A stretch of DNA of 39,670 bases from Candidatus Kuenenia stuttgartensis (GCA_945874095.1 CAMCFM010000001.1:1-39670), one strand, 5' to 3'. Positions 16,043-39,670 are shown, numbered from the stretch's first letter. Notes: generated by a model from the sequence alone, not told the origin. Made by a program: numbers and translations.

Positions 16043-16121
16043 TTTATCTATCTCCGGTTCTGTCCTGCATCCTGATGCAGGACTTTGTGGTGTCAATTGA
16101 GTCAATCGATGAGTGTACGAG

Positions 16122-17807: not shown

Positions 17808-17846
17808 CCGTCTGTTGTAATCGCACGTTCACTCTTAATTGAAGGA

Positions 17847-18872: not shown

Positions 18873-19030
18873 GAAATGACCCTAGCTATGACGTATTTGT
18901 GAAAACCTGAACTTGGAACCAAGGCTAAGCCATTGGTATTTAATTGCTTGTTGATCTATGTGCAGGCAATTCCCGCTGAACGACGATAGTCGTCAGAATT
19001 GCACTTATTGAATTCCATATGAATCGAATG

Positions 19031-19120
19031 ATCTAATTCACGGCGATTTCTCCGTTACGACGGTTGGGAGGTCAAGGGTTCAAAGGGGACGGGCTACCAG
19101 TTCCACCCCTCTGCACCACT
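19031..19120 (-). promoter_or_regulatory. Conserved structured leader motif, copy 1 (159 nt upstream of DUF1559 gene 17847..18872)
   Basis: A 62-nt core (19049-19110) matches 21512-21573 at 60 of 62 positions. On the minus strand the hairpin CAGAGGGG...CCCCUUUG differs from the hairpin in copy 2 by compensatory changes. Confidence 0.45.
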
Positions 19121-19144
19121 AAAATAGAACTTCTTTGGTTGGGT

Positions 19145-20239: not shown

Positions 20240-20294
20240 AGGATTCAGGCCTCTTGTACTTTCTTCGTTGCAACTCAGGGAGAAAATCGATTGA

Positions 20295-21332: not shown

Positions 21333-21493
21333 TAGAACCTCTCTTCTTACATGCGAGTGCATGCTTCTCGATTCTGACTAGCGGCAAGTTATTGCTATTT
21401 GGTGGTTTATTGATTGGCGCAGTGGTGCATTTTGCGAAATAGACGACCATTTACGCAGTTTCGCACTTGTGAGAATTCACTAAAATCAGGATA

Positions 21494-21583
21494 ATCTACT
21501 TCATGGCTTTCTCTCCGTTACGACGGTTGGGAGGTCAAGGGTTCGAAGGGGACGGGCTACCAATTCCACCCCTTCGGCCCACT
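21494..21583 (-). promoter_or_regulatory. Conserved structured leader motif, copy 2 (162 nt upstream of DUF1559 gene 20295..21332)
   Basis: Same motif as 19031-19120. The hairpin CGAAGGGG (21544-21551 on +) / CCCCTTCG (21569-21576) is perfect. Confidence 0.45.
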
Positions 21584-21610
21584 TTTTATCTGACTGCTAT
21601 TGCAACTGGA

Positions 21611-22846: not shown

Positions 22847-24143
22847 TGCTCCCTCCTGTATCACGATCAAATTGAATTTGTGATTCCGAATCAGGTTCCT
22901 CAAAAACCCAAAGCTCAAACGGATCTTCAAGTTCCTGCCAGGACTCGACTCCGCTCCTTATCTCGGATTCACTCAACAAACAGTTGTTCAAAGAGGCAAT
23001 CATTGCATCCTGATCCATGTCGATACCAATAAAAACCAACTCCTGGGCCCGGTCCCCCCATATGGGATGCCAATTATTCATGACTCGTTCACATTCTATA
23101 GGGTCGTCAGGCCATTCCTCTTTCGGCGTAATCGCCAGCCATTTCCCAGCATATTCAATACGGCAATTATGACCTGCCATTGAATAATAACCCACGTCGT
23201 CATTACGACTTGCGAGCCATAGAAATCCTTTCGCCCGCAATAAACCGTGCGGCGGTTTATTGATCCAGCTCCATAATCGAGCAGGGTGAAATGGCTTTGT
23301 GGATCGATAAACAAAACTTGTGACACCGTATTCGTCTGCTTCGGATGCTACCATATCCCGTGGTGATGATAACCAGCCTTCTGACTTCTCGGCATTCTGG
23401 AATTCAAAAAGACCTGTCCCCATGATCTCTTCGACTGCAATCCGACCATAGCTGGTCCTTAAGAACTTCGCCGAAGGATTCAACTTTCTCACAAACGACT
23501 CAATCTGACTCAGTTGATCTTCGTCCACCAAATCCGTTTTGTTAATCAAAATGACGTTGGCAAACTCGACCTGATCAATCAACAGATCCACGATCGACCG
23601 ATCGTCAGATTCGTTCACCGCCCAACCACGATCCTGGAGTTCATCGGTCGTTCCAAATTCATTGAAAAATGAACGGGCATCAATCACTGTAACCATCGTA
23701 TCAAGTCGAGCAAGACTTTTGAGACTTTGCCCTTCATCATCCTGAAATGTAAATGTTTCAGCCACCGGCATCGGCTCAGAGATTCCTGTGGATTCTATTA
23801 ATAGATACTCAAAGCGGCCATCCTGGGCAAGCTTTGAAACCTCTTCAAGCAAATCTTCCCTCAGAGTACAGCAAATACAACCATTGGTCATCTCAATGAG
23901 TTTTTCATCGCGACGAACAAATGATGAATCTGGCCCTGGTGGCCTGGAGATCAACTTCGAATCAATATTGATCTCACTCATATCATTAACGATTACTGCA
24001 ATTTTCAGCCCTTGAGTATTTGATAGAATCTGGTTCAAAAGCGTTGTTTTGCCTGAACCGAGGAATCCGGACAACACTGTGACTGGTAATCGGGAATCCG
24101 CAACTGATTGCATTTCTCTCTGAGCGTTCACTAAAGTTTTCAT
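22839..24143 (-). CDS. COG0523-family metallochaperone GTPase (tandem paralogue)
   Basis: I trimmed ORF 22839..24248 to ATG 24143 (MKTLVNAQ...). It carries [32 protein letters not shown] and NKTDL. It overlaps the downstream paralogue by 8 nt. Confidence 0.85.
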
Positions 24144-24572
24144 ATGACTCTCTGTTTGTGACTTGTGTTTGATCCATGCCGACCAGCCATGGCTAAAACA
24201 GCCGGGCAGATCATACTCGAACACAAATGGAATCCAACCATTTTTCAAGAGCTTTACACGGAATTCTTTTACTTGGATCGCACGTAATCCGAGATCTGGT
24301 GAATCTCGATACGATCCGGTATCCGTTCAGTTTGTATCTGTACCCAAATTCCAGGCATGACTGAGTTCAATGTCCCATTGACACAATCAGGACTAAAATC
24401 CCAGCAAATTCAGATCGCTGGAATGGGATTAGCCGTAATTTGATCACGGATTCAAACGCCAATATATTCAGGATCTGATATGCTCTGAGAATCAGAGCAA
24501 CCCATCCCCGCGTCAGAACCTCATACCAAATCAAAACAATCCAGAGAGGTTAAAAACCTCTTCAAAGACGCA

Positions 24573-24905
24573 TTAAACAATAAATTCCATAGGAGGTGCT
24601 CTTGAACGTGATCTAAAACAATCTGATGCATCAAAATTGATGATCAGCAAACTTTTGAAATACTCCCCGCTCTCATAGCATACAAGAGAAGACTGCGAAT
24701 CGTACATTGCCTGAAATTGTGTCAGAATTTCACAAATCGGACACTCGACATCACTGCTTTCAAGAGTGTTATCGAAATGCAAACCATCCGACTGGCACTG
24801 TTCACGTCCATGATGATCAAATATCGGCAGGCCGTGCAACGACTCGCCCATGCTTGTCAGCAAGGTCAAGAAAACCAGAAGTGTGGATACTGCTCGGTTG
24901 GGCAT
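24573..24905 (-). CDS. Hypothetical small Cys-containing secreted or membrane protein
   Basis: ORF 24573..24983. ATG 24905 gives MPNRAVSTLLVFLTLLTSMGESLHG, which is signal-like. No homology recognised. It could be spurious. Confidence 0.3.
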   Translation of the reverse strand: MPNRAVSTLLVFLTLLTSMGESLHGLPIFDHHGREQCQSDGLHFDNTLESSDVECPICEILTQFQAMYDSQSSLVCYESGEYFKSLLIINFDASDCFRSRSRAPPMEFIV

Positions 24906-25224
24906 CTTTACTCGAATAGGTGACTCGTGAAAGCGTCTCTTTAAAACTACAATATGGTGACCAACTCTGATTGTCAACATCAATTATCCAAAATCATGGC
25001 TTTATTCTTTTGGAGTTTTTATCCCTATTGGGGTAGGGGAAATTCTGCGCCGAGGATACGTCGACTTGAAGTTGGCTGATTGACTGAACTGAATACTGCC
25101 AGTGAGGATCAAATCGGAGGGGTGTGCATAATCCGGGCTAGGCTATTGACGATATGCCTAATTCCGGCCAAAAATTCATGAATATGAGCTGAGTATATCC
25201 GGCGGCGGCCGTTCGGGAATCTCC

Positions 25225-25590
25225 ATGCAAATCACCATCCAAACCACGGTCAACGCTGATATCGACACTGTCTGGGACGCCTGGACAATGCCGGACGATA
25301 TCAACCAGTGGAACGCGGCCAGCGATGATTGGCACAACCCACGCAGCAGCAACGACCTGCGGCCCGGCGGGCGGTTCAGCTGCCGCATGGAGGCCCGCGA
25401 TGGCAGCTTTGGGTTCGACTTCGAAGGTACTTGCACGCAAGTGGTTCACCAGAAGCTGATTGAATACGTCCTGGGCGACGACCGCTCGGTCACCATCCGC
25501 TTCGAGCCGACCGAAACCGGCGTTCAGGTGGTGGAAACATTTCAGGCCGAAGACGTACACGCCGCCGAGCTACAAAAGCAAGGTTGGTAA
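25225..25590 (+). CDS. SRPBCC/AHSA1-family (Aha1-domain, START-like) protein, ending at a premature in-frame TAA
   Basis: MQITIQTTVNADIDTVWDAWTMPDDINQWN...GGRFSCRMEARDGSFGFDFEGT...ELQKQGW is typical of the family. After TAA 25588-25590 the same frame continues IILNRFAAYVEFKKH* to 25638, which looks like the normal family C-terminus. Confidence 0.75.
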   Translation: MQITIQTTVNADIDTVWDAWTMPDDINQWNAASDDWHNPRSSNDLRPGGRFSCRMEARDGSFGFDFEGTCTQVVHQKLIEYVLGDDRSVTIRFEPTETGVQVVETFQAEDVHAAELQKQGW

Positions 25591-25973
25591 ATTATCCTCA
25601 ACCGCTTCGCGGCCTATGTCGAATTCAAAAAGCACTGATGCCCGCGCCTCAGCTATCGCAGGACAAAACCTTGTCCCAGTTCAATTCAACAATGGGTCAC
25701 AACAATTGGGAATGCCACTAAGTTAATCACAAGAACTGACACTATAAAAGGTTAAATTCATCGCTGATCAATGACACTCCGTTTGCGAACGACGCCTTCG
25801 GCTTCAGTGCCAGACACGCGAGGGCATTCATCCCGGACGAACGTCGAATCGGTTATAACTCATTTCTTCTCATCTGGTTACAGCTTAACTTAGTGGCATT
25901 CGGGGCATTCTTCGTTAACGGAGTCTCAATCCGGTCTAAACCAGATCGGGTACGCAGGTTACGGTAGCTCACA

Positions 25974-26330
25974 ATGACCAATCCATCGTCACACAACTTA
26001 CTCGATCATGATTCAGGGCTCATCCGCAACCACTTCACCCTCAACCAACTCACCGATTTCGCCCGTGGTGTGTTGTCCGACTCCAACAGAGACGGTATCA
26101 TCGATTTTATGGCTTCGCCCTTGCGGACCCAGGCCTGGTACCTCGACGCGATGTGCAACTGGCAGTCTCTTTCCACCAACGACACCGGGCAGAACCGCAC
26201 GCACAACGCTCGGAACCAGGTCACCGGCGTGGGCTCCGCGACACTCACTTTCGACGCCAACGGCAGCATGACGACCGACGAATCCGCTGCGAATAAGCCG
26301 GATGATCCCTTGATCTTCGAATCACCGTGA
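25974..26330 (+). pseudogene. Rhs/YD-repeat-like gene fragment
   Basis: LDAMCNWQSLSTNDTGQNRTHNARNQVTGVGSATLTFDANGSMTTDE resembles YD-repeat units (GNW...Q.RTHN..N..T......YDANGN.T.D). Just upstream (about 25940-25970) the frame reads NQIGYAGYGSSQ*. There is no plausible full-length context. Confidence 0.35.
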
Positions 26331-26504
26331 AGCGGTCGAGGCCGCCCCGGAACTTTCCTGAATATCCCAAACGGCTCCTGGCCCCGTTTTCCGCCATTTC
26401 CGTTCGAAACCCACTTTGACTTCCCCACAATCCGCGATAGTATGAAATTACCCTAAGCTCGGAGCTTGTGACTCCGATCCATCGCATTCGAAGGAGAACT
26501 CCGC

Positions 26505-27212
26505 GTGACAGTCTTCTCTCTTGCACTCATCCTGATTGGCCTCGGGGGCACCAACATGTCCGACGACCCCAAACCCGCGCCTGATGCTCCGGCACAAACC
26601 CCCACTCCCACCGTTCAACCCGCTAAGCTCGAAACGATCGTTCTCGGCGGCGGCTGCTTCTGGTGCACCGAAGCCGTTTATGAAGAACTTCTGGGAGTCG
26701 AGGATGTCACCAGTGGCTACTCCGGCGGAAGCATTCGAAATCCCTCATATGAACAAGTCCTCTCCGGTTTCACGGGCCATGCCGAAGTGATCAAAATCAC
26801 TTACGACCCGTCCGTCATCAAGCCCGAAGACCTGCTCCACGTCTTCTTAACCGTCCACGACCCCACCACGCTCAACCAGCAAGGTCCCGATCACGGCACC
26901 CAATACCGCTCGGTCATTTTTGTCTCGAACGAAGCCGAACGAGAGCGGGCGATGAAAATCATGAAGGAAGTCGCCGACGCCAAAGTCTGGCGCAACCCGA
27001 TCGTCACCACCATCGAACCCCTCAAAACCTTTTACCCCGCCGAGGACTATCATCAAGACTACTACCGCCAATTCAAGACCGCACGCGGACCCAAAGTGCT
27101 CCAAATGAACGCGAACTACTGCCGCGCGGTCATCGAACCCAAGGTCGCCAAGTTTCGCAAGAAATACGCCGCACAACTCAAAAAGAAACCTGCGATACCC
27201 ACCAAACCGTAA
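26505..27212 (+). CDS. msrA: Peptide-methionine (S)-S-oxide reductase MsrA with N-terminal hydrophobic anchor/signal
   Basis: GTG start with AAGGAGA 8 nt upstream. Motifs: GGGCFWCTEAVYEELLGV, GYSGG, GHAEVIKITYDP, DPTTLNQQGPDHGTQYRSVIF, YHQDYY. Confidence 0.9.
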   Translation: MTVFSLALILIGLGGTNMSDDPKPAPDAPAQTPTPTVQPAKLETIVLGGGCFWCTEAVYEELLGVEDVTSGYSGGSIRNPSYEQVLSGFTGHAEVIKITYDPSVIKPEDLLHVFLTVHDPTTLNQQGPDHGTQYRSVIFVSNEAERERAMKIMKEVADAKVWRNPIVTTIEPLKTFYPAEDYHQDYYRQFKTARGPKVLQMNANYCRAVIEPKVAKFRKKYAAQLKKKPAIPTKP

Positions 27213-27454
27213 TCGAAGCGTAAGGGCTCAGGTCATGCGCCTGTGCCTTCTGATGTCAGGGAAGGATAAAGGGTCAGGGGTAGGAAAAGGGTCAGGAGTA
27301 GAATGGGTCGAGGGAATATAGGGGCCAAGAGCCTATCTGGTAATTTGAGGTCTTTCGAGTCAAGTTAACGGGCTCCTGCCCCCTTTTCTTCCCCCTCCCT
27401 CAGTTTGTTAACCCCTTAATGGGAGGGGTATGTGAGGCGAGCCATCACGATTGA

Positions 27455-27717
27455 ACAAGTTATGGCTTGCGTTTACAAAAGGGAGCGATCAAGCTGATCG
27501 ACTTCGGGCTTGCTGTTTCTAAAGATCCCACAAATTCGAATGGAAGGATTACGGCTGGAACCAAGGGCTTTACGTCTCCCGAACAGGCGATTGAATGACG
27601 CAGGTGAATCCGGATGAGCGGTATCAGAGCATTCTGGAAGTCATTAACGACTTGGAATTCCTGAAAGCGCATGGTTCCCTGCCTACGACTCGATTGGGGA
27701 TGGAAATGAGCATCTAA
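27455..27717 (+). pseudogene. Ser/Thr protein kinase remnant (subdomains VII-VIII and XI only)
   Basis: The first frame reads LQKGAIKLIDFGLAVSKDPTNSNGRITAGTKGFTSPEQAIE* with its stop at 27596-27598. A shifted frame starting at 27604 reads VNPDERYQSILEVINDLEFL...* with its stop at 27715-27717. The N-lobe and subdomains IX-X are missing. The remnant ends 4 nt before the ISL3 inverted repeat. Confidence 0.5.
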
Positions 27718-28205
27718 AATTGGCTCTTCCGCACTTTTGGTTGACACGGGAGTTTTAGCAAGACCCTCCGCCTCAACAGTTCAAAACTTCCCCGACCATA
27801 CATCTGGCGTTTGATTGTTTTCAGTCGGTTCACCTGACCCTCGACCTGACCGTTGCTCCATTCGCAGTTCAACGCCTCCTTCACGGCCATTTCGTCTTGC
27901 TGAAGGCCGGATGCAAAATGACGAATCTCCGATGGCATTTCCTTTGAAATCGCTTCACTCAGCCAACCTGTCCAATTCTCAATTCGGTGATTGCAAACCA
28001 TTTTGACGAATTCCTGACCAACTTTTCTGGCTTGGCGGAACACTGGATTGATTGACAAAAGCCTGTCCAGGAAGTGTTTGTCTTCGGTAGTCAGATACTC
28101 ATCATCGATGACCAGCAGACGTGAAACAGTTGACGCCGATGGCGGTTCGCCTGAACACTTGACTGCGACAGGCTTCAACGCCCCCCCCCGCCACTTGGCA
28201 ACCAT
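27714..28205 (-). pseudogene. ISL3 transposase, C-terminal fragment
   Basis: HFLDRLLSINPVFRQARKVGQEFVKMV...WLSEAISKEMPSEIRHFASGLQQDEMAVKEALNCEWSNGQVEGQVNRLKTIKRQMYGRGSFELLRRRVLL matches the conserved ISL3 C-terminal region. Confidence 0.75.
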
Positions 28206-28690
28206 CCTGCGAACCGCATAGCAATGCCCGGTGTAGCCTTGTTCGCGTACTTCTCGATAAATCCCGCCGCATTTGGAAATGAGAATCCATCAGTCGAGAG
28301 GAGCATCAGGCATAAACAGGTGCCAGTTTTGGGATACGCTCGCAAAAGATTCGACGGATGTAGAAACCATTGTCACAGTAGTACTTTCGTACAATCAGCA
28401 GGATTCTCAGACGCCTGGTGATGAGTGGAAGATCGGAAATCTTACTGGTGTATAGACTACGAACATGATTAGAAAGGGTGTGGCAGATTGGACACGAGGC
28501 AGTTTTTGAGATCGATCTGATATTTATCAGGAAATGTTCAGCCCTTTGACAAGGCTGAAGACCTTGAAACAGGCGGGATCGAAGAACTCGGTGTAAGTGC
28601 ACATGTCTAAACCCCATTCACTTCTGAGGATAGATATCCATACCCATTCAGAATTATACGGAGGGTTTGTACCAAAAGTGCGGAAGAGCC
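27722..28690 (-). mobile_element. ISL3-family insertion sequence, internally deleted non-autonomous derivative (969 bp)
   Basis: Perfect 20-bp terminal inverted repeats: GGCTCTTCCGCACTTTTGGT at 27722-27741 and its reverse complement at 28671-28690. Only N- and C-terminal transposase fragments lie between them. Confidence 0.8.
28306..28617 (-). pseudogene. ISL3 transposase, N-terminal zinc-finger fragment
   Basis: SCPICHTLSNHVRSLYTSKISDLPLITRRLRILLIVRKYYCDNGFYIRRIFCERIP matches the zf-ISL3 pattern (CP.C......HS.Y.R...DLP......L.L..RR..C.N..C....F.E). The central DDE part is absent. Confidence 0.7.
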
Positions 28691-28809: not shown

Positions 28810-28826
28810 CTTCTGGAAACCAGAAG
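28810..28826. promoter_or_regulatory. Perfect 7-3-7 palindrome upstream of the helicase/methylase operon (possible operator)
   Basis: CTTCTGG-AAA-CCAGAAG at 28810-28826, 26 nt upstream of ATG 28852. A TTGACT hexamer lies about 25 nt further upstream. Confidence 0.3.
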
Positions 28827-28851
28827 GCTCGCCGTTTAGTCTTGCCGACCG

Positions 28852-29349
28852 ATGACCTATACAAACAGAAGGACTGGTGTGATACTATCAACCTGCTGCG
28901 TGGCCGACATCACAAGAATGAGGTATTTACCAGTGGGTGATCAACTTAAATTCGAGCCTTCAAACCTGACCCAGCCTCAGTTCCACCAGTTGTCGGAATG
29001 TGCGCATGCGGCGGAAAATTTATCTCCCCAGGTGCTAATTACTGCTGCAAAACAACACCTTGAGCGTACTCAAGCCGCCCATGCGTCTAATCGGCTAATC
29101 AATTTACGCCTTGCTACTGCAATTGTCAGTGTGCTGGAAGAGTTGGTGAACGCCCGGGGTATCATGGAAACAAATCAGGCGTGGTGGTTGAGAGGAGCGA
29201 TGTACTATTTCACAACCAGCAACGATGATGAGCCTGATTTTCAATCGCCTCTAGGGTTTGAGGACGATGCTGAAATCCTGAATGCCTGCTTGAAATTTAT
29301 CGACCGAAACGACCTATGTCTGAATGTTGAGGATTACGACAATGCCTAA
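28852..29349 (+). CDS. Small soluble protein with a DUF1232-like motif; first gene of the helicase/methylase operon
   Basis: 165-aa ORF, with an alternative start at ATG 28918 (MRYLPVG...). YYFTTSNDDEPDFQSPLGFEDDAEILNACL follows the DUF1232 pattern Y....P.D.IPDF.P..G..DD..V but without hydrophobic helices. Its stop overlaps the helicase start (ATGCCTAA). Confidence 0.5.
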   Translation: MTYTNRRTGVILSTCCVADITRMRYLPVGDQLKFEPSNLTQPQFHQLSECAHAAENLSPQVLITAAKQHLERTQAAHASNRLINLRLATAIVSVLEELVNARGIMETNQAWWLRGAMYYFTTSNDDEPDFQSPLGFEDDAEILNACLKFIDRNDLCLNVEDYDNA

Positions 29350-32329
29350 AGTCGTTACTCCGACACCCGGGATGCGTGTGCTGTGCCGAGATGCAGAATG
29401 GTTGGTAACGCGTGTGGATCCCTCGGATCACACCCACGAAAATTACGCAGTGCATTGCATCGGTGCTGATGACCTCGTTCGCGGGCATGAGGCCATCTTT
29501 CTAACGCAACTCGATGCGATCGAACCGGTCGACCCTCGCAACACGCAGCTCGTGCGGGACCAGTCCAGTGGATATAGGTTGGCAAAGCTATTTCTGGAAG
29601 CACAACTGCGACAGATGCCTGCCACCGGAGTTCAACCGGACTTGAAAGGCATGGGTGCCTTCAAGCCGATGAACTTTCAGGTTCAGACAGTTCAATGGGC
29701 ACTGAAACAGTTGCGACCCAGGCTGCTGTTGGCCGATGCCGTGGGGCTCGGCAAAACAATCCAGGTTGGGATGATCCTTTCCGAACTGATGCGTCGTGGA
29801 CGGGCCAGTCGGATTCTGGTTCTGGCGAAGAAGTCGATGCTGACTCAGTTCCAGTCGGAATTGTGGAACCGATTTGGCATCCCACTTGTGCGACTTGACT
29901 CCGATGGTATTGCGAAACTTCGATTGCGAATTCCTAGCAACAAGAATCCCTTCGAAGTTTACCATCGCATCATCATCAGTATCGATACCCTCAAGAACGT
30001 GGGCAGCTATCGTCATTTTCTCGAAAACACTCGCTGGGACTGTGTCGTCATCGATGAAGCACACAACGTGGCGGGAGCGAGCGTTCCCGAAAGACACCTT
30101 GCCTATCGTCTGGCCCGACTTTTATCTCGTCGAACCGACTCGATGTTGCTGACAACCGCAACACCTCATAACGGCAAACGCGAGACCTTTGGCCGACTGA
30201 TTTCCCTACTTGATCCCTCCGCCATCCCAGATCCTGATTTCAAGGAGTATAGCGCCGAGGACATCAAAGGGTTCTTCCTAATGCGCTTCAAGGAGGATGT
30301 CCGTGAGGATGCAGGTGAGAATCTGACGGACCGAATGCTGGTTCCTATAGAGCAAACGACCGTTCCGGCCAGCGAAGACGAGGAGAAAGTCTACGCCGCC
30401 CTGTCTGAGCTACGGGAGGAAACGAAAAGAAATAAGGGGAACGAAGACTGGAAAAACAACGTTCTTGTGCAGTACGGGATCTACAAACAATTCCTGTCCA
30501 GCCCCGAATCCTGTCGTAAAACTCTTCGAAAGCGAATTGTCGCCGTTCAGAAACATTCCTCCACCAGCCCTGAATTGCTATTTCTAGATGGGATCGATTC
30601 ACTTCTATCCAGTATGAGCATCCGCGAGTCGTCACGGTACAAATTGCTCAAAGCACAACTGGACGAAATTGGCTGGAATGGTTCACCCGCAAGTCCGCGT
30701 GTTCTCGTATTCACGGAATACCGTGAAACTCAGGATGCTCTGGCGGAGGCACTGTCAAACGACTACAAGCTGAATTACTCTTCGAAGTTCGAGCAACAGC
30801 CAAAGCAGGTCCTGGCAACGATCAATGGGTCTTGCCCAGACATCTGTCTGATGGACACGGTGGAGGCGTTCGGGACGGCATCATCAGAACTGCGGATGCT
30901 GCTGGCTACAGATGTGGCATCAGAAGGCGTGAACCTTCATCACCAGTGTCACAACATCATCCACTACGACCTGCCATGGTCGATCATCACGCTGATTCAA
31001 CGTAACGGCCGTATCGACCGCTTCGGGCAATTGCAGAACCCGGTCCTGCGTTACCTGCGTGTAAGCACTCGGGATGGTATGTTGAAGGGTGATGAGTCAA
31101 TCTTCGAACGTTTGATCGAGAAGGTCGAAGAGATCAACCGTTCTACCCGCCAGGGAGAAACGGTTCTGAAACTCTATGACCCCGAAGCGGAGGAGCGCTA
31201 CATAGCCCAAAAGGGAATCCTCCATGGTGATTCCGAGGTTTTGGAAAAAGCAGCCGCACAGAGCAGTCCCGAGGCAAACGAGCTGGAAACTATACTCAGC
31301 CAGGCCAATCCCTCAGGGCAGGAGGACTTTCTGAAATTCCTGCTTGGAGAGACCGATGAAGCTCCCTCTCAGTCGACAACTCTGGACTCCGCTGACAAAG
31401 TCAGTTCACGACTTCGCCTTTATGACGATCGGCGATTCCTGATCGAAGGATATCGATACCTCGCGGAACTGAGTCAGAATTACTCTGCCATTGAGGAGAA
31501 CGGTAAAGTGATTCTTCTCAGTGCCCCAAAAGACCTCTGTCGTCGGTTGGGAGCGCCCAGCGAGTCGAATGACGTTGTATTCGGAGCAACAGCGATTCCT
31601 TCCGAAGCATGGCCTCAAGACAACCAATTTCGCCTGTCGGATGATTCGGATCGTATCGAGCTGGCAATCAGAGCAGCAAGAAATACGTCGGGACATTGGT
31701 CAAGGGAGCTGATGGCCACCGACCAGCAACCGATTCTGAAATGGATCACCGAGCGACTGTTAATGCTGATGAAGCGAGGCGAGTGCCCGCACATCACTTC
31801 TCGCAAGCTTGAAAAAGGCGAGCTTTGCTTTTGCTTCATCGGTCAGTTCAGCTCCCGGGCGGGTGCCCCATTGGCCGTTGATGCTCACGCTATCTCGTTC
31901 CGAAAGGGGGGCGGCTTTCAACATCGTCCTCTACGCGAAGCTTTGGATAGGGCGGGTTTCGATAGCCTGGTCAACGAAGGCAAGGTCGGCGATCTGGATG
32001 CGATTCGAGGCCCCCTGATTGCGTCGGCTGTCGAAGCAAGCCTGGATTACTTGCGGAAACTGGGCCACCAACACGTGGAAAGCCTCTTGCCCTTACTTCG
32101 ACGGGAGAACCGTCGTCTGCGTAACTGGAAGAATCGGCGTGAAGAGCTGCTTGCCAGTCGGATTGAAAAACTGTCGCCCAATCACCCTAAAGCCAAGATG
32201 TACCGCAAGGATCTGGAAGAGATGGACGCCTACATCCGAGACCGGGAAGAGAATTGGCAGGATACCTACTTCACGGCTTCCACTGAACCATCGACTCAAT
32301 TGGTCCTGGTGATTGAAGGGCTGAACTGA
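29342..32329 (+). CDS. SNF2-family helicase/ATPase (DrmD-like)
   Basis: I trimmed ORF 29324..32329 to ATG 29342 (MPKVVTP...). Motifs: I LLADAVGLGKTIQ, II DCVVIDEAHNV, III LLTTATPHNGK, V LLATDVASEGVNL, VI LIQRNGRIDRFGQ. A ~360-aa C-terminal extension has no recognised motif. Confidence 0.9.
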   Translation: MPKVVTPTPGMRVLCRDAEWLVTRVDPSDHTHENYAVHCIGADDLVRGHEAIFLTQLDAIEPVDPRNTQLVRDQSSGYRLAKLFLEAQLRQMPATGVQPDLKGMGAFKPMNFQVQTVQWALKQLRPRLLLADAVGLGKTIQVGMILSELMRRGRASRILVLAKKSMLTQFQSELWNRFGIPLVRLDSDGIAKLRLRIPSNKNPFEVYHRIIISIDTLKNVGSYRHFLENTRWDCVVIDEAHNVAGASVPERHLAYRLARLLSRRTDSMLLTTATPHNGKRETFGRLISLLDPSAIPDPDFKEYSAEDIKGFFLMRFKEDVREDAGENLTDRMLVPIEQTTVPASEDEEKVYAALSELREETKRNKGNEDWKNNVLVQYGIYKQFLSSPESCRKTLRKRIVAVQKHSSTSPELLFLDGIDSLLSSMSIRESSRYKLLKAQLDEIGWNGSPASPRVLVFTEYRETQDALAEALSNDYKLNYSSKFEQQPKQVLATINGSCPDICLMDTVEAFGTASSELRMLLATDVASEGVNLHHQCHNIIHYDLPWSIITLIQRNGRIDRFGQLQNPVLRYLRVSTRDGMLKGDESIFERLIEKVEEINRSTRQGETVLKLYDPEAEERYIAQKGILHGDSEVLEKAAAQSSPEANELETILSQANPSGQEDFLKFLLGETDEAPSQSTTLDSADKVSSRLRLYDDRRFLIEGYRYLAELSQNYSAIEENGKVILLSAPKDLCRRLGAPSESNDVVFGATAIPSEAWPQDNQFRLSDDSDRIELAIRAARNTSGHWSRELMATDQQPILKWITERLLMLMKRGECPHITSRKLEKGELCFCFIGQFSSRAGAPLAVDAHAISFRKGGGFQHRPLREALDRAGFDSLVNEGKVGDLDAIRGPLIASAVEASLDYLRKLGHQHVESLLPLLRRENRRLRNWKNRREELLASRIEKLSPNHPKAKMYRKDLEEMDAYIRDREENWQDTYFTASTEPSTQLVLVIEGLN

Positions 32330-35300
32330 TGCCGCTCGACACCTGCGTCACAAACGTCGGCGAATACTATTCGTCCCACTACCTCGACAGCTTTTTTGCC
32401 AAAGATGTCAAGGAACTCGTCGCAAAATGGTATGAACAAGGTTCGGAAGGCCCCCCACGGCGTCTCCAGAACCTGTCGCAATACTATTTCCGCGCCAAAA
32501 CCCAGGTACTCGACGAAGAAGAACCAATTCGGCGGCGTTTTTCGGGTGACGAAGCTCTCGCCTGGCATTCCCGGCTCCTGCAAGCCCTGGGATACAGCGA
32601 TTTGCAAGCTTTTGACCACCCGGTCGAAGGCGGCGACACTTTTGTGCCTGTACTCGGCCGCGTCAACCGCTACAATCAGCCTTGGCTGGTGGTCTGTGAA
32701 ACCCATTTCTGCCTGCCCGAAGCAAGCCTGAAGGAAGGCATGCCCAGCGAGGATCCGCTCGGTATGGAACCTTTCATCGATCAACTCACAACCAGGTCCG
32801 ATCACGACCTCTGCACTGGTGACTGGAGCCGATGTGTAGGCCGAGTTTTTACTGAAGAAGACGCGCCTCGATGGATCATTCTCCTCGCCGGCAGTCAATT
32901 GCTGCTGCTTGACCGCAATACGTTCGCCCAAGGCCGATTCCTCGCGTTTGACCTGGACGACGCCTTCGGGCGTAAGGAAAAAGAGACCTTCAACCACATT
33001 GCGGCATTCCTCTCCGCAGAGTCGCTCTGCCCCGACGGTGAATCCGACGAAGTCCTGCTCGATAAGCTCGAAGAACAAAGTCACAAATTCGCTCACGGTG
33101 TCACTGAAAACCTCCAGTTCGCCGTACGGGAAGCCATAGAACTGCTGGTCAACGAATGGGCACGCGATCGCACTGAGCGTGAAAAACGGCCACTTCTTAG
33201 GATTTCCCGTGAAGAACTCAAGGCCAACGGCCAAAACCTACGCGTCAATCTCCCGGAACTGGACGATCGAAACTATAAAATCACCGCCGAACACCTTCGG
33301 CGTGAGGCCCTGACGTTCGTCTATCGACTCCTCTTTTGTTTTTACGCCGAAGCCCGCGGCGGTGAACTGGAAATTCTTCCGGTGGACGACACCATCTACC
33401 GACTCGGCTACAGCCTGGAATCGCTCCGCGACCTGGAACTCGTGCCACTCACCGAGGCCACCAGCTCTGGAACCTATTTTCATCAGCATCTGAAACACCT
33501 CTTCCGTATCATCCACAACGGTTTCCATCCCGGTGACCACTCCGGGCAAGAGATCCAGTCTCGCCTGCTGCTCAATAACGAAATGGTCCGCGCCTTCGAA
33601 GTGCGGCCGCTCACGGCCACTTTGTTCTCTCCAGATGCCACTCCACTGCTGAACCGGGCTGAACTCTCCAACCGCTGCCTGCAAAAGGTGATCCACTACC
33701 TATCACTCAGCAAGGACGATCGGTCTCGAACCGTCGGCCGTGTGAATTATGCCGAACTTGGTATCAACCAGTTGGGGGCCGTCTATGAGGGTTTGCTCTC
33801 TTACAAAGGCATGTTTGCCGACCAGGACCTGATACACGTCAAACCCAAAGACAAAGACTTTGGCGACAAGAAAACCCCCACCTGGTTTGTCCCCCGGGAA
33901 CGCATGGAAGAATTTGAGCGGGATGAAGTCGAACGACTGACCGACGGCATGCCACGAATTTACCGTAAAGGCGAATTCATCCTGCACCTGAACGGCATCG
34001 ACCGCGAACAGTCGGCATCCTACTACACGCCAGAAGTGCTCACCAAATGCCTGGTAGAAGAAGCCCTGCGCGAACTGCTCAAAGATTACACGCCCGACGA
34101 TGCCGACAAAATTCTCCATCTGAAAATCTGCGAACCCGCCATGGGCAGTGGCGCGTTCCTGAACGAGGCCGCTGAACAACTGGCGATCCGCTATCTGGAG
34201 CTAAAGCAGAAACAGCTCCAGGAAAGATACCCGGATGGCGAAGTGCCGCTCGCTGATCTGCCTCTGGTGCACCAGGAAAAACTCGGTACGCTTGCCACAA
34301 ATCCGCCTGACTTCGCTTTCGCAACCGTTCCCACCAGCATTGAACCAGCCCGCTTTGGCGACGAACTCCGACGCGTCAAGCACTACATCGCCACCAACAA
34401 CATCTATGGCGTTGACTTGAATGAAACCGCCGTCGAGCTGGGCCAGCTCTCGCTCTGGCTGGGCAGCATTCACCGGCTGCTGGTCAAAGAAGGTGACAAC
34501 GGCGGGCGGGACATCTATAAATCAGGTGCCACACCCTGGTTCGGCCTGCGCCTGCGGTGTGGCAACAGCCTGATCGGTGCGCGGCGATCTGTCTGGACCG
34601 CCGAACAGCTCAAACGTGGCGAGCATGCGTGGGACTCGAAACTGATCCAGCAGGTGCAGTCCGATATCGAGGCCCTGCAGGCCAACGCCTCTCTTGAAAC
34701 AATCGCCCTCTATCGCAAGGAAACGATCGACCTGGCCTGCAAAATCAAATGGGCCGACCTCGCTAAAGATGCCGAGCAGTGCCGCGCTCAGGTGGTGCGA
34801 TTTTGCGAATGTGCCCGCGAACGTAATACAACCGGAATGATTCCTGAAGAGAAGTCGCTGTACGAAAATCAGCAGACGACCTGGAAATGGGTCGGTAATC
34901 AAAAGGATCAGGACGCCCTGCTGGCCCTCTTTGACCTGCTGCCCAAGGGGCGCATACGCACGGTAGAGCGGATCTCGTTTGAGATCTTCCAGACTCTGGG
35001 CGAGCAGCATGCCGACTTCAAGGCGGGCTTGCCCCGGCTGCTCAAGCCGGGCACGGCTCGTGGCAGCGATGAGGTTTATCACTTCCTGGTCTTTGACCCC
35101 GAGATGGTGCCCACCCGCAGCGACTCGCTGATGAAATCGTTCTGGAAGGCGGATTGCGCCTCGGCGGCCGATTGGGTGAAGAAGCAGGTCACTCCCAAAT
35201 GGAAGAACGACGAGATTGCTGAAGCCCTGGCGGTTTGCGGGCTGATTGACGCGCACTGGCGTAACTACGCCCAGCAGCGTGCAGAGGCTCTTGCGGCCAC

Positions 35301-37965
35301 CGCCTGCACCGCCACGGTTTGGCCTTTGCCCGCCAATAGCCCTGCGGCTCTCAAGCCCGGGCCGTCGCTGGCTGATCAGGAACGCGTTTGCCGTGAACTG
35401 GAATCGACCTCGGGCAGTTTCCAGCGGTTGCGGTTGGTGATGGATACCTGGTGCAGTCTCTGGTTCTGGCCTCTGGAAAGTGTGGCTGATCTCCCCTCAC
35501 GCGATGGATTTCTGGCCTCGGCCCGGTTGCTGCTTTCGGGCGAGCGGCCAGACAAAGCCTGGGTGGGCATGCTCACCGCCCGACTCGGCTTTGAAGTGAA
35601 TGTGCTGCTGCAGGCCGCAGTTGATGGTGAAGTTCCCGATACCGAGTTAATGGCCAGTGCTTTGCCTTGGTTTACAGTTGCGGAGACGATTCGAACCGAG
35701 CAGCATTTTCATCATTGGGAGTTGGTGTTTGTTGAAACTTTGGGAGAAACATCGAATAGAGGTGGTTTTGACTTGTTAGTAGGGAACCCGCCATGGATTA
35801 AGTCAATTTGGTCAGACCCAAGTGTACTTTGCGAGCTTTCACCACAGCTAGGAGTTCGCCAAGTTCGAAGCGCTGAATTTAACAAGCACCGCCTTAGCCT
35901 TCTGCAAAGCTGGATTGCGAAGCAATTCTACTCAAATGAATTCCGCGTATCAGATGGGGCTAGTGCAGTTCTAAAGAATAATCGGCTTTACTACGAATTA
36001 GCAGGCATTCAGACGAATATCTACCGCAATTTCATAGTTCGATCTTGGCAGTTGGCATCGACCGATGGAATCATCAGCTTACTTCACCCTGAAGGAGCGT
36101 ACGACGATGCTCGAGGCGGAAAATTCCGATCTAAAATCTATCCTAGGCTGGTCGCTCACTACCACTTCAAGAATGAACTTCAACTGTTCTCAGATGTACA
36201 TCACGAAACCGATTACAGCATAAATATTTACAAGGGCTACTCATCCACTCCTAAATTCTCGCACATGTCAACCGTTTATCATCCAAAGACGATTAACGCC
36301 AGTCGACAACATTCCGATATTACTGCTTCCGTTCCAGGAATAAAAAATGATGAAAACGAATGGAATATTACACCACACAGCGAGCGTTTTTTAAATGTAG
36401 AAGAGAAGGAGCTCGAGCTGTTTTGTTCATTATTGGAAGACTTCGGGACACCGGTCCTTGAAACTCGGCTACCGCAGATTCACGCAAAAAGTCTAATGAA
36501 GATAGTTTCCAAGATAGTTGAAACGCCGCGTCGGCTTATTGACATGGATGGTGAATATATTGCGACCCAGCTTTTTCATGAGGCGAACTCTCAACGTGAC
36601 GGCCTGATAACACGCCAAGATCGACCGTCATTTCACCCTACCAGTACCCAAGAATGGATTATCACTGGTCCGCAATTCTTTGTTGGCACGCCTTTCAATC
36701 GAAAGTCGCGAACCAACTGCACCCATAACAACGCATATGATGACGTTGACTTAACCGATATCTTGAAAGATTTCTTGCCACAATCGGTTTACCGACCTGG
36801 TAATTCGGCTGGAGACACTGCAGGTTACGATACTCGTGTTCCTAGTTCGGCAGACGGACAAACCAAGACAACCGACAAATACCGATATATTAATCGAGAA
36901 ATGATTAGTTCTGGGCTTGAGCGAACTCTTGTTCCAGCCATTATTCCGCCACGGGTGACACACATTGATACAGTGTTTTCAGTTGACTTTAAATGTTACA
37001 GACAAATGGCGCTCTTTACAGCTAGCTGTTCGTCTATTTGTGTTGATTTTCTGGTGAAGTTGACCGGAAAAGGGCACTGCAAACACGACATCGTAGGGAC
37101 ATTACCAATTATTGAAACTAGACACTCGCAGGCACTTATAAGACGATCACTAAGGTTGAACTGTGTGTCAACCTCATATTCAAATTTGTGGACTGCTTTA
37201 TTGGACCAAGAACTAGTCGCCGATGATTGGATATCGAACGACTATCGGTTAGTGCAGGAATATGAATGTACGTGGCGCGAATTAAACGCATCGGAATGGT
37301 TTTGGAAATCGCCGGTGAGGACCGATTTCTCTCGCCGTCAAGCACTACTGGAGGTTGACGCGTTAGTTGCAATGGCATTAGGGCTAACGCTCGAAGAACT
37401 TCTAACAATCTACCGCGTCCAGTTCCCCGTGATGCGGATGTACGAACTGGCTGACGAGTTTGACGCCCGAGGTCGGCGGCTTCGCAACACAACCCGCAAG
37501 GATCAAGGCGGCACGCAGTTCCGCACGGCCCGTGAAGTCGTCGCAACACATTTCCCCGAAGCCTACAAAGTCCGTCCCGCCGAAGCGGCTCTCAGCACTG
37601 ACTGGCCTTTTGCCGAAGAAACCTCGATTCCGGTGGCCGAAGCCGAGCGAGTTCCAAACATCCCCGAATTCGCCTCCATCCACCGCTTTGTGGCCGCCAC
37701 ACAAAACCCGGAAGTTGACCCAAACGCCGGAGAGGACGGCCCACCCTCCGGCGCATTCACCGCCGAACGACTCGCCCAGCTACAAGATGTATACGGTGCT
37801 GGCCGAGTCCCCCTGATGCTGGATGTAAGCTGGGAAATCGACGACGGCCTCCAAACCGTCACCAAAACCTTCTACCCACCCTTCACCAAAGTCGACCGCG
37901 AAGCCGACTATGCCAGGGCGTGGGACGTGTTTGAAGAACGATATGGAAAAGGAGAGCAAGTATGA
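32329..37965 (+). CDS. Giant (1878 aa) N6-adenine DNA methyltransferase-domain protein (Eco57I/gamma-class-like, DrmMI/PglX-like)
   Basis: The ATG overlaps the helicase stop (TGATG). Motifs: SYYTPEVL (nt 34021, aa 565), motif I CEPAMGSGAFLNEA (nt 34129, aa 601), NIYGVDLNETAVELGQLSLWL (nt 34399, aa 691), motif IV FDLLVGNPPWIK (NPPW at nt 35785-35796, aa 1153-1156). Confidence 0.85.
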   Translation: MPLDTCVTNVGEYYSSHYLDSFFAKDVKELVAKWYEQGSEGPPRRLQNLSQYYFRAKTQVLDEEEPIRRRFSGDEALAWHSRLLQALGYSDLQAFDHPVEGGDTFVPVLGRVNRYNQPWLVVCETHFCLPEASLKEGMPSEDPLGMEPFIDQLTTRSDHDLCTGDWSRCVGRVFTEEDAPRWIILLAGSQLLLLDRNTFAQGRFLAFDLDDAFGRKEKETFNHIAAFLSAESLCPDGESDEVLLDKLEEQSHKFAHGVTENLQFAVREAIELLVNEWARDRTEREKRPLLRISREELKANGQNLRVNLPELDDRNYKITAEHLRREALTFVYRLLFCFYAEARGGELEILPVDDTIYRLGYSLESLRDLELVPLTEATSSGTYFHQHLKHLFRIIHNGFHPGDHSGQEIQSRLLLNNEMVRAFEVRPLTATLFSPDATPLLNRAELSNRCLQKVIHYLSLSKDDRSRTVGRVNYAELGINQLGAVYEGLLSYKGMFADQDLIHVKPKDKDFGDKKTPTWFVPRERMEEFERDEVERLTDGMPRIYRKGEFILHLNGIDREQSASYYTPEVLTKCLVEEALRELLKDYTPDDADKILHLKICEPAMGSGAFLNEAAEQLAIRYLELKQKQLQERYPDGEVPLADLPLVHQEKLGTLATNPPDFAFATVPTSIEPARFGDELRRVKHYIATNNIYGVDLNETAVELGQLSLWLGSIHRLLVKEGDNGGRDIYKSGATPWFGLRLRCGNSLIGARRSVWTAEQLKRGEHAWDSKLIQQVQSDIEALQANASLETIALYRKETIDLACKIKWADLAKDAEQCRAQVVRFCECARERNTTGMIPEEKSLYENQQTTWKWVGNQKDQDALLALFDLLPKGRIRTVERISFEIFQTLGEQHADFKAGLPRLLKPGTARGSDEVYHFLVFDPEMVPTRSDSLMKSFWKADCASAADWVKKQVTPKWKNDEIAEALAVCGLIDAHWRNYAQQRAEALAATACTATVWPLPANSPAALKPGPSLADQERVCRELESTSGSFQRLRLVMDTWCSLWFWPLESVADLPSRDGFLASARLLLSGERPDKAWVGMLTARLGFEVNVLLQAAVDGEVPDTELMASALPWFTVAETIRTEQHFHHWELVFVETLGETSNRGGFDLLVGNPPWIKSIWSDPSVLCELSPQLGVRQVRSAEFNKHRLSLLQSWIAKQFYSNEFRVSDGASAVLKNNRLYYELAGIQTNIYRNFIVRSWQLASTDGIISLLHPEGAYDDARGGKFRSKIYPRLVAHYHFKNELQLFSDVHHETDYSINIYKGYSSTPKFSHMSTVYHPKTINASRQHSDITASVPGIKNDENEWNITPHSERFLNVEEKELELFCSLLEDFGTPVLETRLPQIHAKSLMKIVSKIVETPRRLIDMDGEYIATQLFHEANSQRDGLITRQDRPSFHPTSTQEWIITGPQFFVGTPFNRKSRTNCTHNNAYDDVDLTDILKDFLPQSVYRPGNSAGDTAGYDTRVPSSADGQTKTTDKYRYINREMISSGLERTLVPAIIPPRVTHIDTVFSVDFKCYRQMALFTASCSSICVDFLVKLTGKGHCKHDIVGTLPIIETRHSQALIRRSLRLNCVSTSYSNLWTALLDQELVADDWISNDYRLVQEYECTWRELNASEWFWKSPVRTDFSRRQALLEVDALVAMALGLTLEELLTIYRVQFPVMRMYELADEFDARGRRLRNTTRKDQGGTQFRTAREVVATHFPEAYKVRPAEAALSTDWPFAEETSIPVAEAERVPNIPEFASIHRFVAATQNPEVDPNAGEDGPPSGAFTAERLAQLQDVYGAGRVPLMLDVSWEIDDGLQTVTKTFYPPFTKVDREADYARAWDVFEERYGKGEQV
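37819..37946 (+). repeat. Direct repeat copy A (3' end of the methyltransferase gene)
   Basis: 128 nt, about 89% identical by eye to 39374-39501, including the 40-nt perfect block CCCACCCTTCACCAAAGTCGACCGCGAAGCCGACTATGCC. Confidence 0.85.
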
Positions 37966-39215
37966 CTCAGTTTGCTGGTATTGATGTCGGTCAAGACCAT
38001 ACCTACAGTTGCGTACTCGATATTGAATCGAGAACATTTCACTATCCCGAACAACAGCTAAGCCTATCAGCAACCATCTCATGGCTTCAGTCTTTCAAAA
38101 AGCTGAAGGGAGCATGCATCGATGGGCCACCAAACCCCAATACGGGAGCTTTGGCACAAAGGTTACCACTCCAAACAATTCATAATACGGATCGACGTCT
38201 CACTGAATTTCAAATTGGTATCGGTGGTTGCTATTCCACGCGTGCGATTCCGCCACAGCAAGGAGCCAGCAACTATTGGATGCAAAGTGCGTTCGATCTC
38301 TTTCACCATATTGAAGCCAATTTCGAATGGGGTATTGACAAGGGTGGTGCGAATGGACAGCTGATCGAGACGCATCCAACATACGCCTTCAAGGCGCTCC
38401 TCGGTTGCAATCGGAATGAGATCGACGGGATCCAGCGACTTAGGCTCGATCCGCAGTCGACTCTGCGACGAAAGCATTCATGGGAAGGTCGGGCACAACG
38501 GATCGAATTGCTCACTGCATTGTGTGGCGAAATTGGTTTGGAGGTTCCCGATAACATTCTCCAAAAATGGAACCAACGTATTGATTGGGTGGATGCCGCA
38601 ATTTGTGCGTTCATGTCGTATTGGCACCATGCAATTCGTCAGCAATTAGAATCTCCGGGCGATCCGGTAGAGGGCGCGATCTATTTACGTATTCCTCAAA
38701 AACCACACGCTGTCAACGCACATGATGTCGGGGCAATTAGAGTCGACCGAGGCCCGCTGCGAACAGCCGTTCCAGTGCTTCCGCTGGATGGCATTCCAAC
38801 CCCAGCGAACGCAATCATACTTCGGCTCGGTGACACCGCCCAACTAACTCAATTAGACACGATTGACACCTTACTTTCTTCAGATGATCTTGAAGAATTT
38901 TGGTTTCCCTGTGGCAGTAACGCCAACTTCAATTTGTCTAAAAATCTGAACTTGTTGGGAGGACGGTTGTATCTTTCCTGGGGTGGAAATCTGCGTGTAA
39001 GATTGAGGATCAGCGACTTTCGTAAGGGCGATAACCCTTTACCATATCCGGGCGACTCGAAAAACCCGTGGCCTATGACAGAGTGCCTTTCTTGGTTGCG
39101 AATTAGCGAGGCCACTGAAATCCTTACTGACCAGTTTCGCGTAAAACAATCCGGCGTATGGACTCGTGGATTCGGTGCAGGGCAAACTGCACTATTGTGG
39201 GCGGTGGTTCCTTGA
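37962..39215 (+). CDS. RNase H-fold (DUF429-like) predicted nuclease fused to an uncharacterised ~170-aa C-terminal domain
   Basis: The ATG overlaps the methylase stop (ATGA). The N-terminus [17 protein letters not shown] and [15 protein letters not shown] resemble the DUF429 / RNase H-like nuclease pattern (GID.., E..P). The ORF is well supported. The functional call is tentative. Confidence 0.55.
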
Positions 39216-39235
39216 AATGGAGAGAACGATTGACC

Positions 39236-39553
39236 ATGCTTCAAGCACACCTGACCGAGAACATGCCTACACAGGATTGTATCTCCAATCGAATTTCAGC
39301 TTCCGCCGACTTCACCAACACCCGTACCCAGTATCTCCAGCTAGTCTATGGCTCAGTTCGCGTAGGTCTGAAGCTGGACGTAACCTGGGCGATCGACGAC
39401 GGCCTTCAAACCGTCACCAAGACCTTCGACCCACCCTTCACCAAAGTCGACCGCGAAGCCGACTATGCCCGTGCCTGGGAGGTGTTTGAAGAGCGTTACG
39501 GTGGAACTGTTTCAACCGTTCAGGAAAGTGAAGAAAAGGATTCCAATCCGTGA
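39236..39553 (+). CDS. Small ORF homologous to the methyltransferase C-terminal ~70 aa (stand-alone tail domain or remnant of a second methylase allele)
   Basis: I trimmed ORF 39158..39553 to ATG 39236, which has GGAGAG 12 nt upstream. [65 protein letters not shown] aligns with [66 protein letters not shown] at the end of the 1878-aa protein. Confidence 0.4.
39374..39501 (+). repeat. Direct repeat copy B (inside the small ORF downstream of the DUF429-like gene)
   Basis: See copy A. The two copies lie 1555 bp apart and bracket gene 37962..39215. Confidence 0.85.
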
Positions 39554-39670
39554 CAGGTCTCCTGTAGAATTGGTTCGAGTCGCGGAATAGAGATCTCCCA
39601 ACTTCCACCAAACTCGGTCTGTGATGCTGTCTCAGATGCGATCGGGATCAATGTTTAAGAACAGAGAGAG

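Follow-up and report, generated by a model that had tools for sequence, protein, structure and literature searches.

Class 1 DISARM reportedly consists of DrmD, DrmMI, DrmA, DrmB and DrmC, and Druantia (types I-III) is said to be centred on DruE. BREX loci can hold an embedded type IV enzyme (BrxU/GmrSD) as a nested accessory gene, other defence loci also contain nested accessory genes, and type IV enzymes combine a nuclease with a reader domain of the PUA superfamily (EVE, YTH, ASCH or SRA), as in VcaM4I. Here we describe a locus with likeness to these systems at the end of a 39,670-nt stretch of DNA of ‘Ca. Kuenenia stuttgartensis’ (CAMCFM010000001.1:1-39670), which is called the window below and within which its positions are counted. 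Open reading frames (ORFs) were listed and the window proteins were scanned with Pfam, PADLOC and NCBIfam profiles. The window contains genes for a small DUF1232-like protein, an SNF2-family helicase, a giant adenine methylase and a DUF429 protein. Together they are probably the 5' portion of a methylation-based locus against phages that combines class 1 DISARM with Druantia, and the DUF429 gene occupies a cargo slot in it (coordinates in Table 1).

All four ORFs lie on the plus strand, are intact (165, 995, 1878 and 417 amino acids) and have preserved catalytic motifs and start/stop overlaps. The ORF listing and the sequence thus confirm the arrangement described in the initial annotation, and the overlaps support its proposal of one operon-like unit. 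The ATGCCTAA overlap at 29342-29349 was read straight from the DNA, and those of TGATG (32327-32331) and ATGA (37962-37965) were derived from the ORF coordinates. Position 39553, given as the end of the region in the initial annotation, is not where the fourth protein ends and belongs to a separate ORF of 131 amino acids (39158-39553), which is composed of a DruE-like 5' stub and a duplicate of the methylase 3' end. The GC content of the operon is 0.52-0.60, against 0.44-0.50 in the 10 kb before it.

The helicase and the methylase carry the relation to DISARM, as had been suggested from the sequence. The helicase matches the Pfam models SNF2-rel_dom (1.6e-14) and Helicase_C (5.7e-13), its best PADLOC model is DrmD (PDLC02621, 3.7e-87) and its closest solved relative is RapA (3.8e-27). 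On the NCBIfam equivalog DISARM_DrmD it scores 297.8 bits, below the cutoff of 610, and its match to NCBIfam DpdE (1.2e-47) also lies far below the equivalog cutoff. In the methylase a long N-terminal region (~540 residues precede the methylase domain) is followed by a catalytic domain that is split and by a C-terminal half that varies, apart from the last ~45 residues, which are highly conserved. It matches Eco57I (6e-12) and MmeI_Mtase (2.5e-5) in Pfam, and the gamma-class motifs seen earlier hold up, since SYYTP, CEPAMGSGAF, GVD and GNPPW are invariant in an alignment of six sequences. In PADLOC it fits the model REase_MTase_IIG (PDLC03614, 7e-206) better than DrmMI (1.1e-51).

A genome scan with the methylase yielded eight loci, in Pirellulaceae, Pseudomonadota, Methylobacter, Geobacter, Photobacterium, Bryobacteraceae, Erysipelotrichaceae and Nitrospinota. 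Loci in other genomes are numbered from L001, which is the closest relative and stems from a Pirellulaceae metagenome-assembled genome. Across phyla, L001-L008 retain the pair of helicase and methylase but not the small and DUF429 genes, and helicase orthologues (34-75% identical) adjoin the methylase in L001-L006, L008, L009, L012-14, L025 and L028. All relatives with readable downstream DNA (planctomycetes, proteobacteria, Nitrospinota and E. coli plasmids) continue with a DruE-like gene, usually followed by a gene for a UvrD-like helicase. In L012-14 the order is small gene, SNF2 helicase, methylase, DUF429, DruE-like and UvrD-like gene. L009 has the same first four genes, with an additional gene of ~160 codons before the methylase, and a DruE-like gene further on; L019 starts in the methylase end and continues with the DUF429, DruE-like and UvrD-like genes. 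The order of the four window genes thus recurs in L009 and L012-14, as had been expected if they belong together, but always within a longer locus. L020-L022 comprise the methylase end, a DUF429 gene and further cargo, and in L028 the small, SNF2, methylase and DruE-like genes follow each other without cargo. The pair occurs with a DruE-like gene and without the small and DUF429 genes in L002-L006 and L025. The small and DUF429 proteins are both absent from most helicase-methylase loci, which speaks against their having the rank of core parts that they were first given.

The DruE-like protein measures 2036-2279 amino acids where complete (L002, L003, L005, L006, L013 and L019; 2036-2209 in the first four of these); in L001 and L004 the gene is cut by the end of the locus. 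Its PADLOC matches are DruE1 (2.4e-95), DruE3 (8.3e-93) and, at e-16, DrmA, and Pfam finds DEAD, Helicase_C and MZB (former DUF1998) in it. It reaches 29-30 bits on the NCBIfam model for DrmA, which has a cutoff of 999, and it matches DpdJ at 1.9e-26 to 1.9e-28, far below the equivalog cutoff. On the basis of these domains it may be considered the equivalent of a fused DrmA and DrmB. Against a phage collection its sole match was a partial one of 13%. The UvrD-like helicase of ~600-740 amino acids that follows in L002, L003, L005, L012-14 and L019 has an N-terminal part of ~250 residues without a domain match. Methylase homologues are present on 32 plasmids, mostly from E. coli and Klebsiella. 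The IncY plasmid NZ_LT985234.1 of E. coli (L025) has the four core genes adjacent to each other, with products 30-37% identical to the reference proteins and with generic annotation only.

Class 1 DISARM resembles the locus in that an SNF2 helicase stands next to a large N6-adenine methylase in the same order, and in that the relatives have a DUF1998/MZB helicase downstream. It differs in that the DrmA and DrmB equivalents are one protein of ~2200 amino acids that matches DruE (e-95) rather than DrmA (e-16). No PLD protein was found among the window proteins, where DrmC had already been reported missing, nor in the cores of the relatives that were scanned or have precomputed Pfam matches (L002, L003, L005, L009, L012-14, L025 and L028), and the conserved gene in its stead is the UvrD-like helicase. 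Membership in canonical class 1 DISARM was therefore rejected, because a PLD protein is lacking and the DrmD and DrmA scores are sub-threshold; the better fit of the methylase to the Type IIG model is a further difference. Druantia is approached by the helicase+DUF1998 protein of ~2100-2280 amino acids in the relatives, with its strong DruE matches, of which the window keeps a 5' stub. The partners of this protein here are the SNF2 helicase, the adenine methylase and the UvrD-like helicase, whereas five window proteins and nine proteins of relatives gave no PADLOC match to DruA-D, DruF/G, DruH or the cytosine methylase DruM. The locus therefore falls outside the named Druantia types, whose partner genes are absent. 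The 7-deazaguanine system Dpd likewise places an SNF2 protein (DpdE) and a DEAD/DUF1998 helicase (DpdJ) beside a DNA-modification gene. Here DpdA, DpdB and DpdC are absent, the scores lie far below the equivalog cutoffs and the modification enzyme is an N6-methyladenine (m6A) methylase.

Several features of the relatives are recorded here in their own right. The gene of ~160 codons between helicase and methylase occurs in two planctomycete loci (L009, 3967-4449; L001, 2831-3304), and the L009 copy, which was scanned, has a weak Pfam match to 23S_rRNA_IVP (27.8 bits, cutoff 33.8). Within L025, for which the plasmid coordinates are 52.9-69.2 kb of NZ_LT985234.1, the core locus spans positions 11125-27372, and a second DruE-like stretch without a listed gene lies at 4681-8588. 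At positions 1-9069 of L028, upstream of its complete core, is a dense defence island with a pair of PLD and SNF2 genes, a Mrr_cat protein and a HipA_2/DUF3037 pair. At 936-1354 of L022 the first 65 helicase codons are fused straight to the methylase C-terminus, with ~8 kb deleted, and at 17283-18996 of L008 the DruE-like and UvrD-like genes survive only in fragments.

The interval that separates the methylase gene from the DruE-like gene varies in content, and the DUF429 gene of the window is situated in it. The interval contains PDC-S01 in L002, Schlafen/AlbA2 with HATPase_c_4 in L003, and Schlafen/AlbA2 with HATPase_c_4, a protein kinase and GmrSD in L020. L021 has a RelA_SpoT protein and a weak NACHT-like protein there, and L001 a restriction-enzyme-like protein, a HEC-05/SspE-like protein and an unrelated DUF429 protein. 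The slot is empty in L005, L006, L025 and L028. Nesting of accessory immune genes, including GmrSD in L020, within a methylation-based system resembles BREX. In this locus, however, the nesting site is fixed, the cassettes are scarred by the ends of both flanking genes and a cassette indel separates 99%-identical strains.

These scars are present in the window itself. Directly after the DUF429 gene follows a decayed 5' stub of the DruE-like gene, the translation of which compares with the conserved DruE-like N-terminus MLPAHLAENIRKQ. An alignment of the stub DNA with five other 5' ends or stubs of DruE-like genes has 29 invariant columns and shows a 4-nt deletion. In L013 and L019 an intact DruE-like gene begins 1-6 nt after the DUF429 stop. 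Behind the stub is a second methylase 3' end, which includes repeat R2 and is read through as a portion of the 131-amino-acid ORF, the product of which has a weak PADLOC match to the C-terminus of REase_MTase_IIG. Of 67 codons that align between this remnant and the methylase C-terminus, 34 are unchanged, whereas 17 have synonymous and 16 non-synonymous differences. The pattern indicates purifying selection, and the remnant therefore stems from a diverged functional methylase allele and not from a local copy. In both the window and L017 a DruE-like 5' stub sits at every boundary of a cassette, methylase 3' remnants lie behind the cargo in L020 and L021, and in L009 a 61-amino-acid duplicate of the DruE-like N-terminus (95% identity) flanks an insertion of 5.7 kb. 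An assembly artefact was rejected as origin of the repeats, as identity between the copies is no more than 89% and the pattern recurs in four independent contigs. Cassettes of the integron type were rejected too: neither an integrase in or near the locus nor an attC was found, and what bounds the cassettes are stubs, differing in length, of the genes on either side.

L017 is a metagenome contig that is nearly identical to this part of the window. Its positions 1-1618 are 99% identical to 37869-39486 and its positions 2664-2945 are 93% identical to 39387-39668. It has one extra cassette of 1045 bp with the same repeats at its borders, in which a 285-amino-acid gene is accompanied by another DruE-like stub (MLPIHLTENIRKQVLYYLQ*TYDF) and by a third copy of the methylase end. 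In an alignment, R2 of the window is a hybrid of the R2 and R3 copies of L017, and is therefore the product that recombination between direct repeats is expected to give. The assemblies of the window and of L017 stop at the same point, hence they probably break at a repeat. The 285-amino-acid protein (L017, 1673-2530) has no Pfam or NCBIfam match; by eye, its CDTFAGYA and FVFVDPPK stretches are like those of RlmJ/DUF519-type adenine methyltransferases.

The cargo protein of the window consists, according to structure modelling, of a DUF429 domain with a RuvC/RNase H fold (residues 1-~255) and a PUA/YTH-like beta-barrel with conserved Trp residues (residues ~268-417). The RNase H fold named in the initial annotation is borne out: the protein reaches 32.1 bits on Pfam DUF429 (PF04250, cutoff 23), 28 of 28 homologues match this family too, and RuvC/YqgF is the best-supported Foldseek match of the N-terminal domain (probability 0.95-0.99, template modelling (TM) score ~0.55). 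An AlphaFold2 model from a 28-sequence alignment has a predicted local distance difference test score of 90.9 for the whole protein, and the C-terminal domain modelled alone scores 91.6. Foldseek ranks YTH m6A-reader domains first for the C-terminal domain, with weak scores (probability up to 0.89, E 0.05, TM 0.46), and its other fold matches include the EVE-HNH enzyme VcaM4I, PD-T4-3 and viral ASCH proteins. The assignment of this fold is suggestive and insecure. E136, H138, D208, D211, W378 and W400 are invariant and D54, W314 and W370 nearly so; D8 of the N-terminal GIDVG is conserved wherever the alignment includes the N-terminus. The models weakly suggest a modification-reading nuclease. 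Such a protein would share with VcaM4I and other type IV enzymes the combination of a nuclease and a PUA/YTH-like barrel; its nuclease would be a DUF429 RuvC/RNase H domain instead of HNH or PD-(D/E)xK, and lies N-terminal to the putative reader.

The family is small (38 matches), with a few named members from Planctomycetota. Homologues that are 35-68% identical directly follow the methylase in L009, L012-14 and L019-L022, and a member occurs alone, without the core locus, in L015/L016, L018 and L023. Sequence and profile searches gave no relative of solved structure and plasmids gave no homologue. The 361-amino-acid DUF429 protein of L001 was rejected as a member, since profile comparison finds the two unrelated, though Pfam assigns both to DUF429.

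The methylase gene is a mosaic. The compositionally distinct segment noticed earlier was confirmed and could be delimited to 35629-37428, with a GC content of 0.42-0.47 and a GC content at third codon positions of 0.37-0.48, where the remainder of the gene has 0.55-0.62 and 0.60-0.77. Within it, identity to the L009 orthologue drops from 66-89% to 28-56%. The segment spans the region of motif IV (NPPW) and the presumed target-recognition part, it looks like a swapped catalytic-lobe/specificity module, and it may reflect a recombinational exchange of methylase specificity. The last ~45 residues (37830-37965) are 56-68% identical to those of the proteobacterial loci L002, L003 and L005, and more so in closer relatives; the ~100 residues before them cannot be aligned across the proteobacterial orthologues. 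This terminus may both bind a partner, as a peptide, and provide a handle for recombination.

In the mechanism that we propose, the core, complete in the relatives, would comprise the DrmD-like SNF2 helicase, the giant N6-adenine methyltransferase, the DruE-like helicase of ~2200 amino acids and the UvrD-like SF1 helicase, with the small DUF1232-like protein as an optional leader. The methylase would mark a host motif, with a specificity determined by its variable C-terminal half that recombination has exchanged, and the helicase ensemble would, by analogy with DISARM, act on incoming unmethylated DNA. The methylase/DruE-like junction would serve as cargo slot, here with a DUF429 RuvC-fold nuclease with PUA/YTH-like domain as first occupant. 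This protein would be an auxiliary nuclease that reads a base modification in the manner of type IV restriction, and so complement the methylation-sensitive core. Homologous recombination between the repeated gene ends that flank the cassettes, the 3' end of the methylase gene and the 5' end of the DruE-like gene, would add and remove cargo. Units of methylase 3' end, cargo and DruE 5' end would in this way integrate and excise Campbell-style, with no dedicated integrase. A bolder combination of claims is put forward only tentatively. In it, the portable homology arms of a dedicated slot would be provided by the conserved final ~45 methylase codons together with the initial ~20-60 codons of the DruE-like gene, and at this slot circularized fragments would integrate and excise Campbell-style to build tandem arrays of immune genes by homologous recombination without a recombinase. 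In addition, the DUF429 protein would represent an unrecognized class of modification-reading restriction nucleases, with a RuvC fold and a YTH-like aromatic cage, possibly for m6A.

The initial annotation had proposed a self-contained system of four genes, in which the small and DUF429 proteins would replace DrmA, DrmB and DrmC as effectors. The overlaps that link all four genes, the shared order in L009 and L012-14 and the lack of DrmA, DrmB or DrmC matches among the window proteins fit this proposal. Synteny largely refutes it, as all syntenic relatives continue into the DruE-like and usually the UvrD-like gene (a DruE-like gene follows in L009, L012-14, L019 and L028), a DruE-like 5' stub remains in the window and the pair with a DruE-like gene dispenses with the small and DUF429 genes in L002-L006 and L025; we consider it highly improbable. 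More can be said for a planctomycete subtype in which the DUF429 protein, instead of being independent cargo, would be a dedicated effector nuclease that replaces the PLD nuclease DrmC. The DUF429 start and the methylase stop overlap in the window as well as in L009, its homologues repeatedly come right after the methylase, and in L001 an unrelated DUF429 protein has taken the same position. Yet this role is doubtful, since the family also occurs alone, is missing from most core loci and, in the window and L020/L021, is bounded by repeat scars as other cassettes are.

Of the methylase it could be asked whether it combines the two functions of a Type IIG restriction-modification enzyme and uses the SNF2 helicase as translocase partner, in a split arrangement like Type ISP. 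REase_MTase_IIG is its best PADLOC model, far above DrmMI, and the ~540 N-terminal residues ahead of the methylase domain match no family. Pfam nevertheless finds no nuclease-domain or MmeI_N match, neither sequence nor profile search found a relative in the PDB, and a conserved N-terminal strand reads, by eye, ETH/ETxF and not ExK. Constant linkage to two more helicases is also not a feature of Type IIG, and this identity seems quite unlikely. About equally improbable is that the locus is decaying or has been truncated and is no longer functional. The stubs and the other remnants at 39236-39553, the ISL3 remnant upstream, the decayed relatives L008 and L022 and a contig break at the same point in two assemblies could be taken in this sense; four long ORFs are nevertheless intact with catalytic motifs and overlaps, and the stubs are scars between cassettes and not breaks in core genes. 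The DISARM/Druantia hybrid with a cargo slot thus seems to us the most probable reading, with several points that weigh against it. The match of the cargo C-terminal domain to YTH/PUA is weak and no Pfam family covers this domain. A nuclease was not identified in the conserved core, where the methylase N-terminus and the N-terminal ~250 residues of the UvrD-like protein have no match. Decayed loci exist, with fragments only in L008 and an internal deletion in L022. The window ends 117 nt after the 131-amino-acid ORF, so that an intact DruE-like gene of this genome would lie beyond view, and a function in defence is deduced from homology and context.

The small protein probably starts at 28918, since a 99%-identical database protein (P0207) has 143 amino acids. 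Its family numbers 269 clusters (E<=1e-3) and has the invariant motif YF..D.EPDF.SP.GFEDD.EVLNACL, in which Y97, D107, G113, D116 and D117 are invariant. The name DUF1232-like, given at the outset, stands in part. The window protein itself has no match in Pfam (E<=0.01, including DUF1232/YkvA, PF06803), NCBIfam or PADLOC, but DUF1232 is the sole recurrent Pfam match in the family (10 of 46 members, weak, best 3.8e-4), many members are labelled YkvA/DUF1232 by the Joint Genome Institute (COG label YkvA), and by eye the spacing Y..D..PD..P.G..DD agrees with DUF1232. It may thus belong to a distant DUF1232/YkvA-like family, a label that is weak and not baseless. The gene lies upstream of the SNF2 helicase in L009, L012-14, L022 and L028 and is absent from L002-L008, and distant homologues stand alone in L026/L027. 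Fusions of the domain (P0129, P0149 and P0154) have uninformative partner domains.

The surroundings of the operon had been described as a defence island or variable region with an ISL3 derivative, a kinase remnant and an Rhs fragment. Pfam supports the ISL3 remnant, and the ORF at 28306-28617 resembles a transposase N-terminus when read by eye; directly upstream of the operon, the remnant likely marks the left edge of the acquired region. The Rhs-like fragment was seen by eye only and the kinase remnant was not found: among the ORFs at 25974-26330 and 25225-25590, one has a YD/RHS-repeat-like stretch (LTFDANGSMTTD) and the other is SRPBCC/AHSA1-like, both by eye. No tRNA gene marks the edge of an island. 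The locus DNA had no megablast match to plasmids, and an exact-sequence look-up gave no identical entry for the DUF429 protein, methylase, helicase or 131-amino-acid ORF. A scan for promoters and terminators gave fewer sites than shuffled sequence and is hence uninformative. On the minus strand at 11174-24248 is a planctomycete-style metal-handling neighbourhood without relation to the defence locus, with a CobN-like chelatase (1691 amino acids), two CobW-family GTPases, a MotA/ExbB protein and two DUF1559/N-methyl proteins. Genes with DUF1559 and an N-terminal methylation motif, and PEP-CTERM proteins, in the window are in keeping with a planctomycete origin, as is L001, the closest relative.

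Table 1. Features of the locus and its borders, in window coordinates.
Feature	Coordinates	Strand	Remarks
Broken ISL3-family transposase remnant	27714..28617	-	Pfam DDE_Tnp_ISL3 8e-10 for 27714-28205
Small, probably soluble protein, 143 aa	28918..29349 (ORF open from 28852)	+	Optional first gene of the locus
DrmD/DpdE-like SNF2-family helicase, 995 aa	29342 (or 29324)..32329	+	Start overlaps small-gene stop by 8 nt
Gamma-class N6-adenine DNA methyltransferase (Eco57I/MmeI-type), 1878 aa	32329..37965	+	Assigned by Pfam, PADLOC and motifs
Compositionally foreign mosaic segment	35629..37428		Residues ~1101-1700 of methylase
Repeat R1, functional methylase 3' end	37813..37946	+	134-nt direct repeat, 89% identical to 39368-39501
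Two-domain cargo protein (DUF429), 417 aa	37962..39215	+	Start overlaps methylase stop (ATGA)
Decayed DruE-like 5' stub	39236..39300	+	Starts 20 nt after DUF429 stop
Second methylase 3' end remnant	39300..39553	+	R2 = 39368-39501, within 131-aa ORF 39158-39553
Tail	39554..39670	+	Matches DNA 3' of third repeat copy in contig L017

The four-gene core is widespread and bridges DISARM, Druantia and Dpd, and its presence on E. coli plasmids opens it to direct tests in a model host. The near-identical pair of strains offers a natural before and after of the shuffling of putative immune genes into a fixed slot, in which the ends of the flanking genes would serve as recombination handles. DUF429, a family without known function, gains a concrete and testable role, as a candidate nuclease coupled to a possible reader of modified bases.

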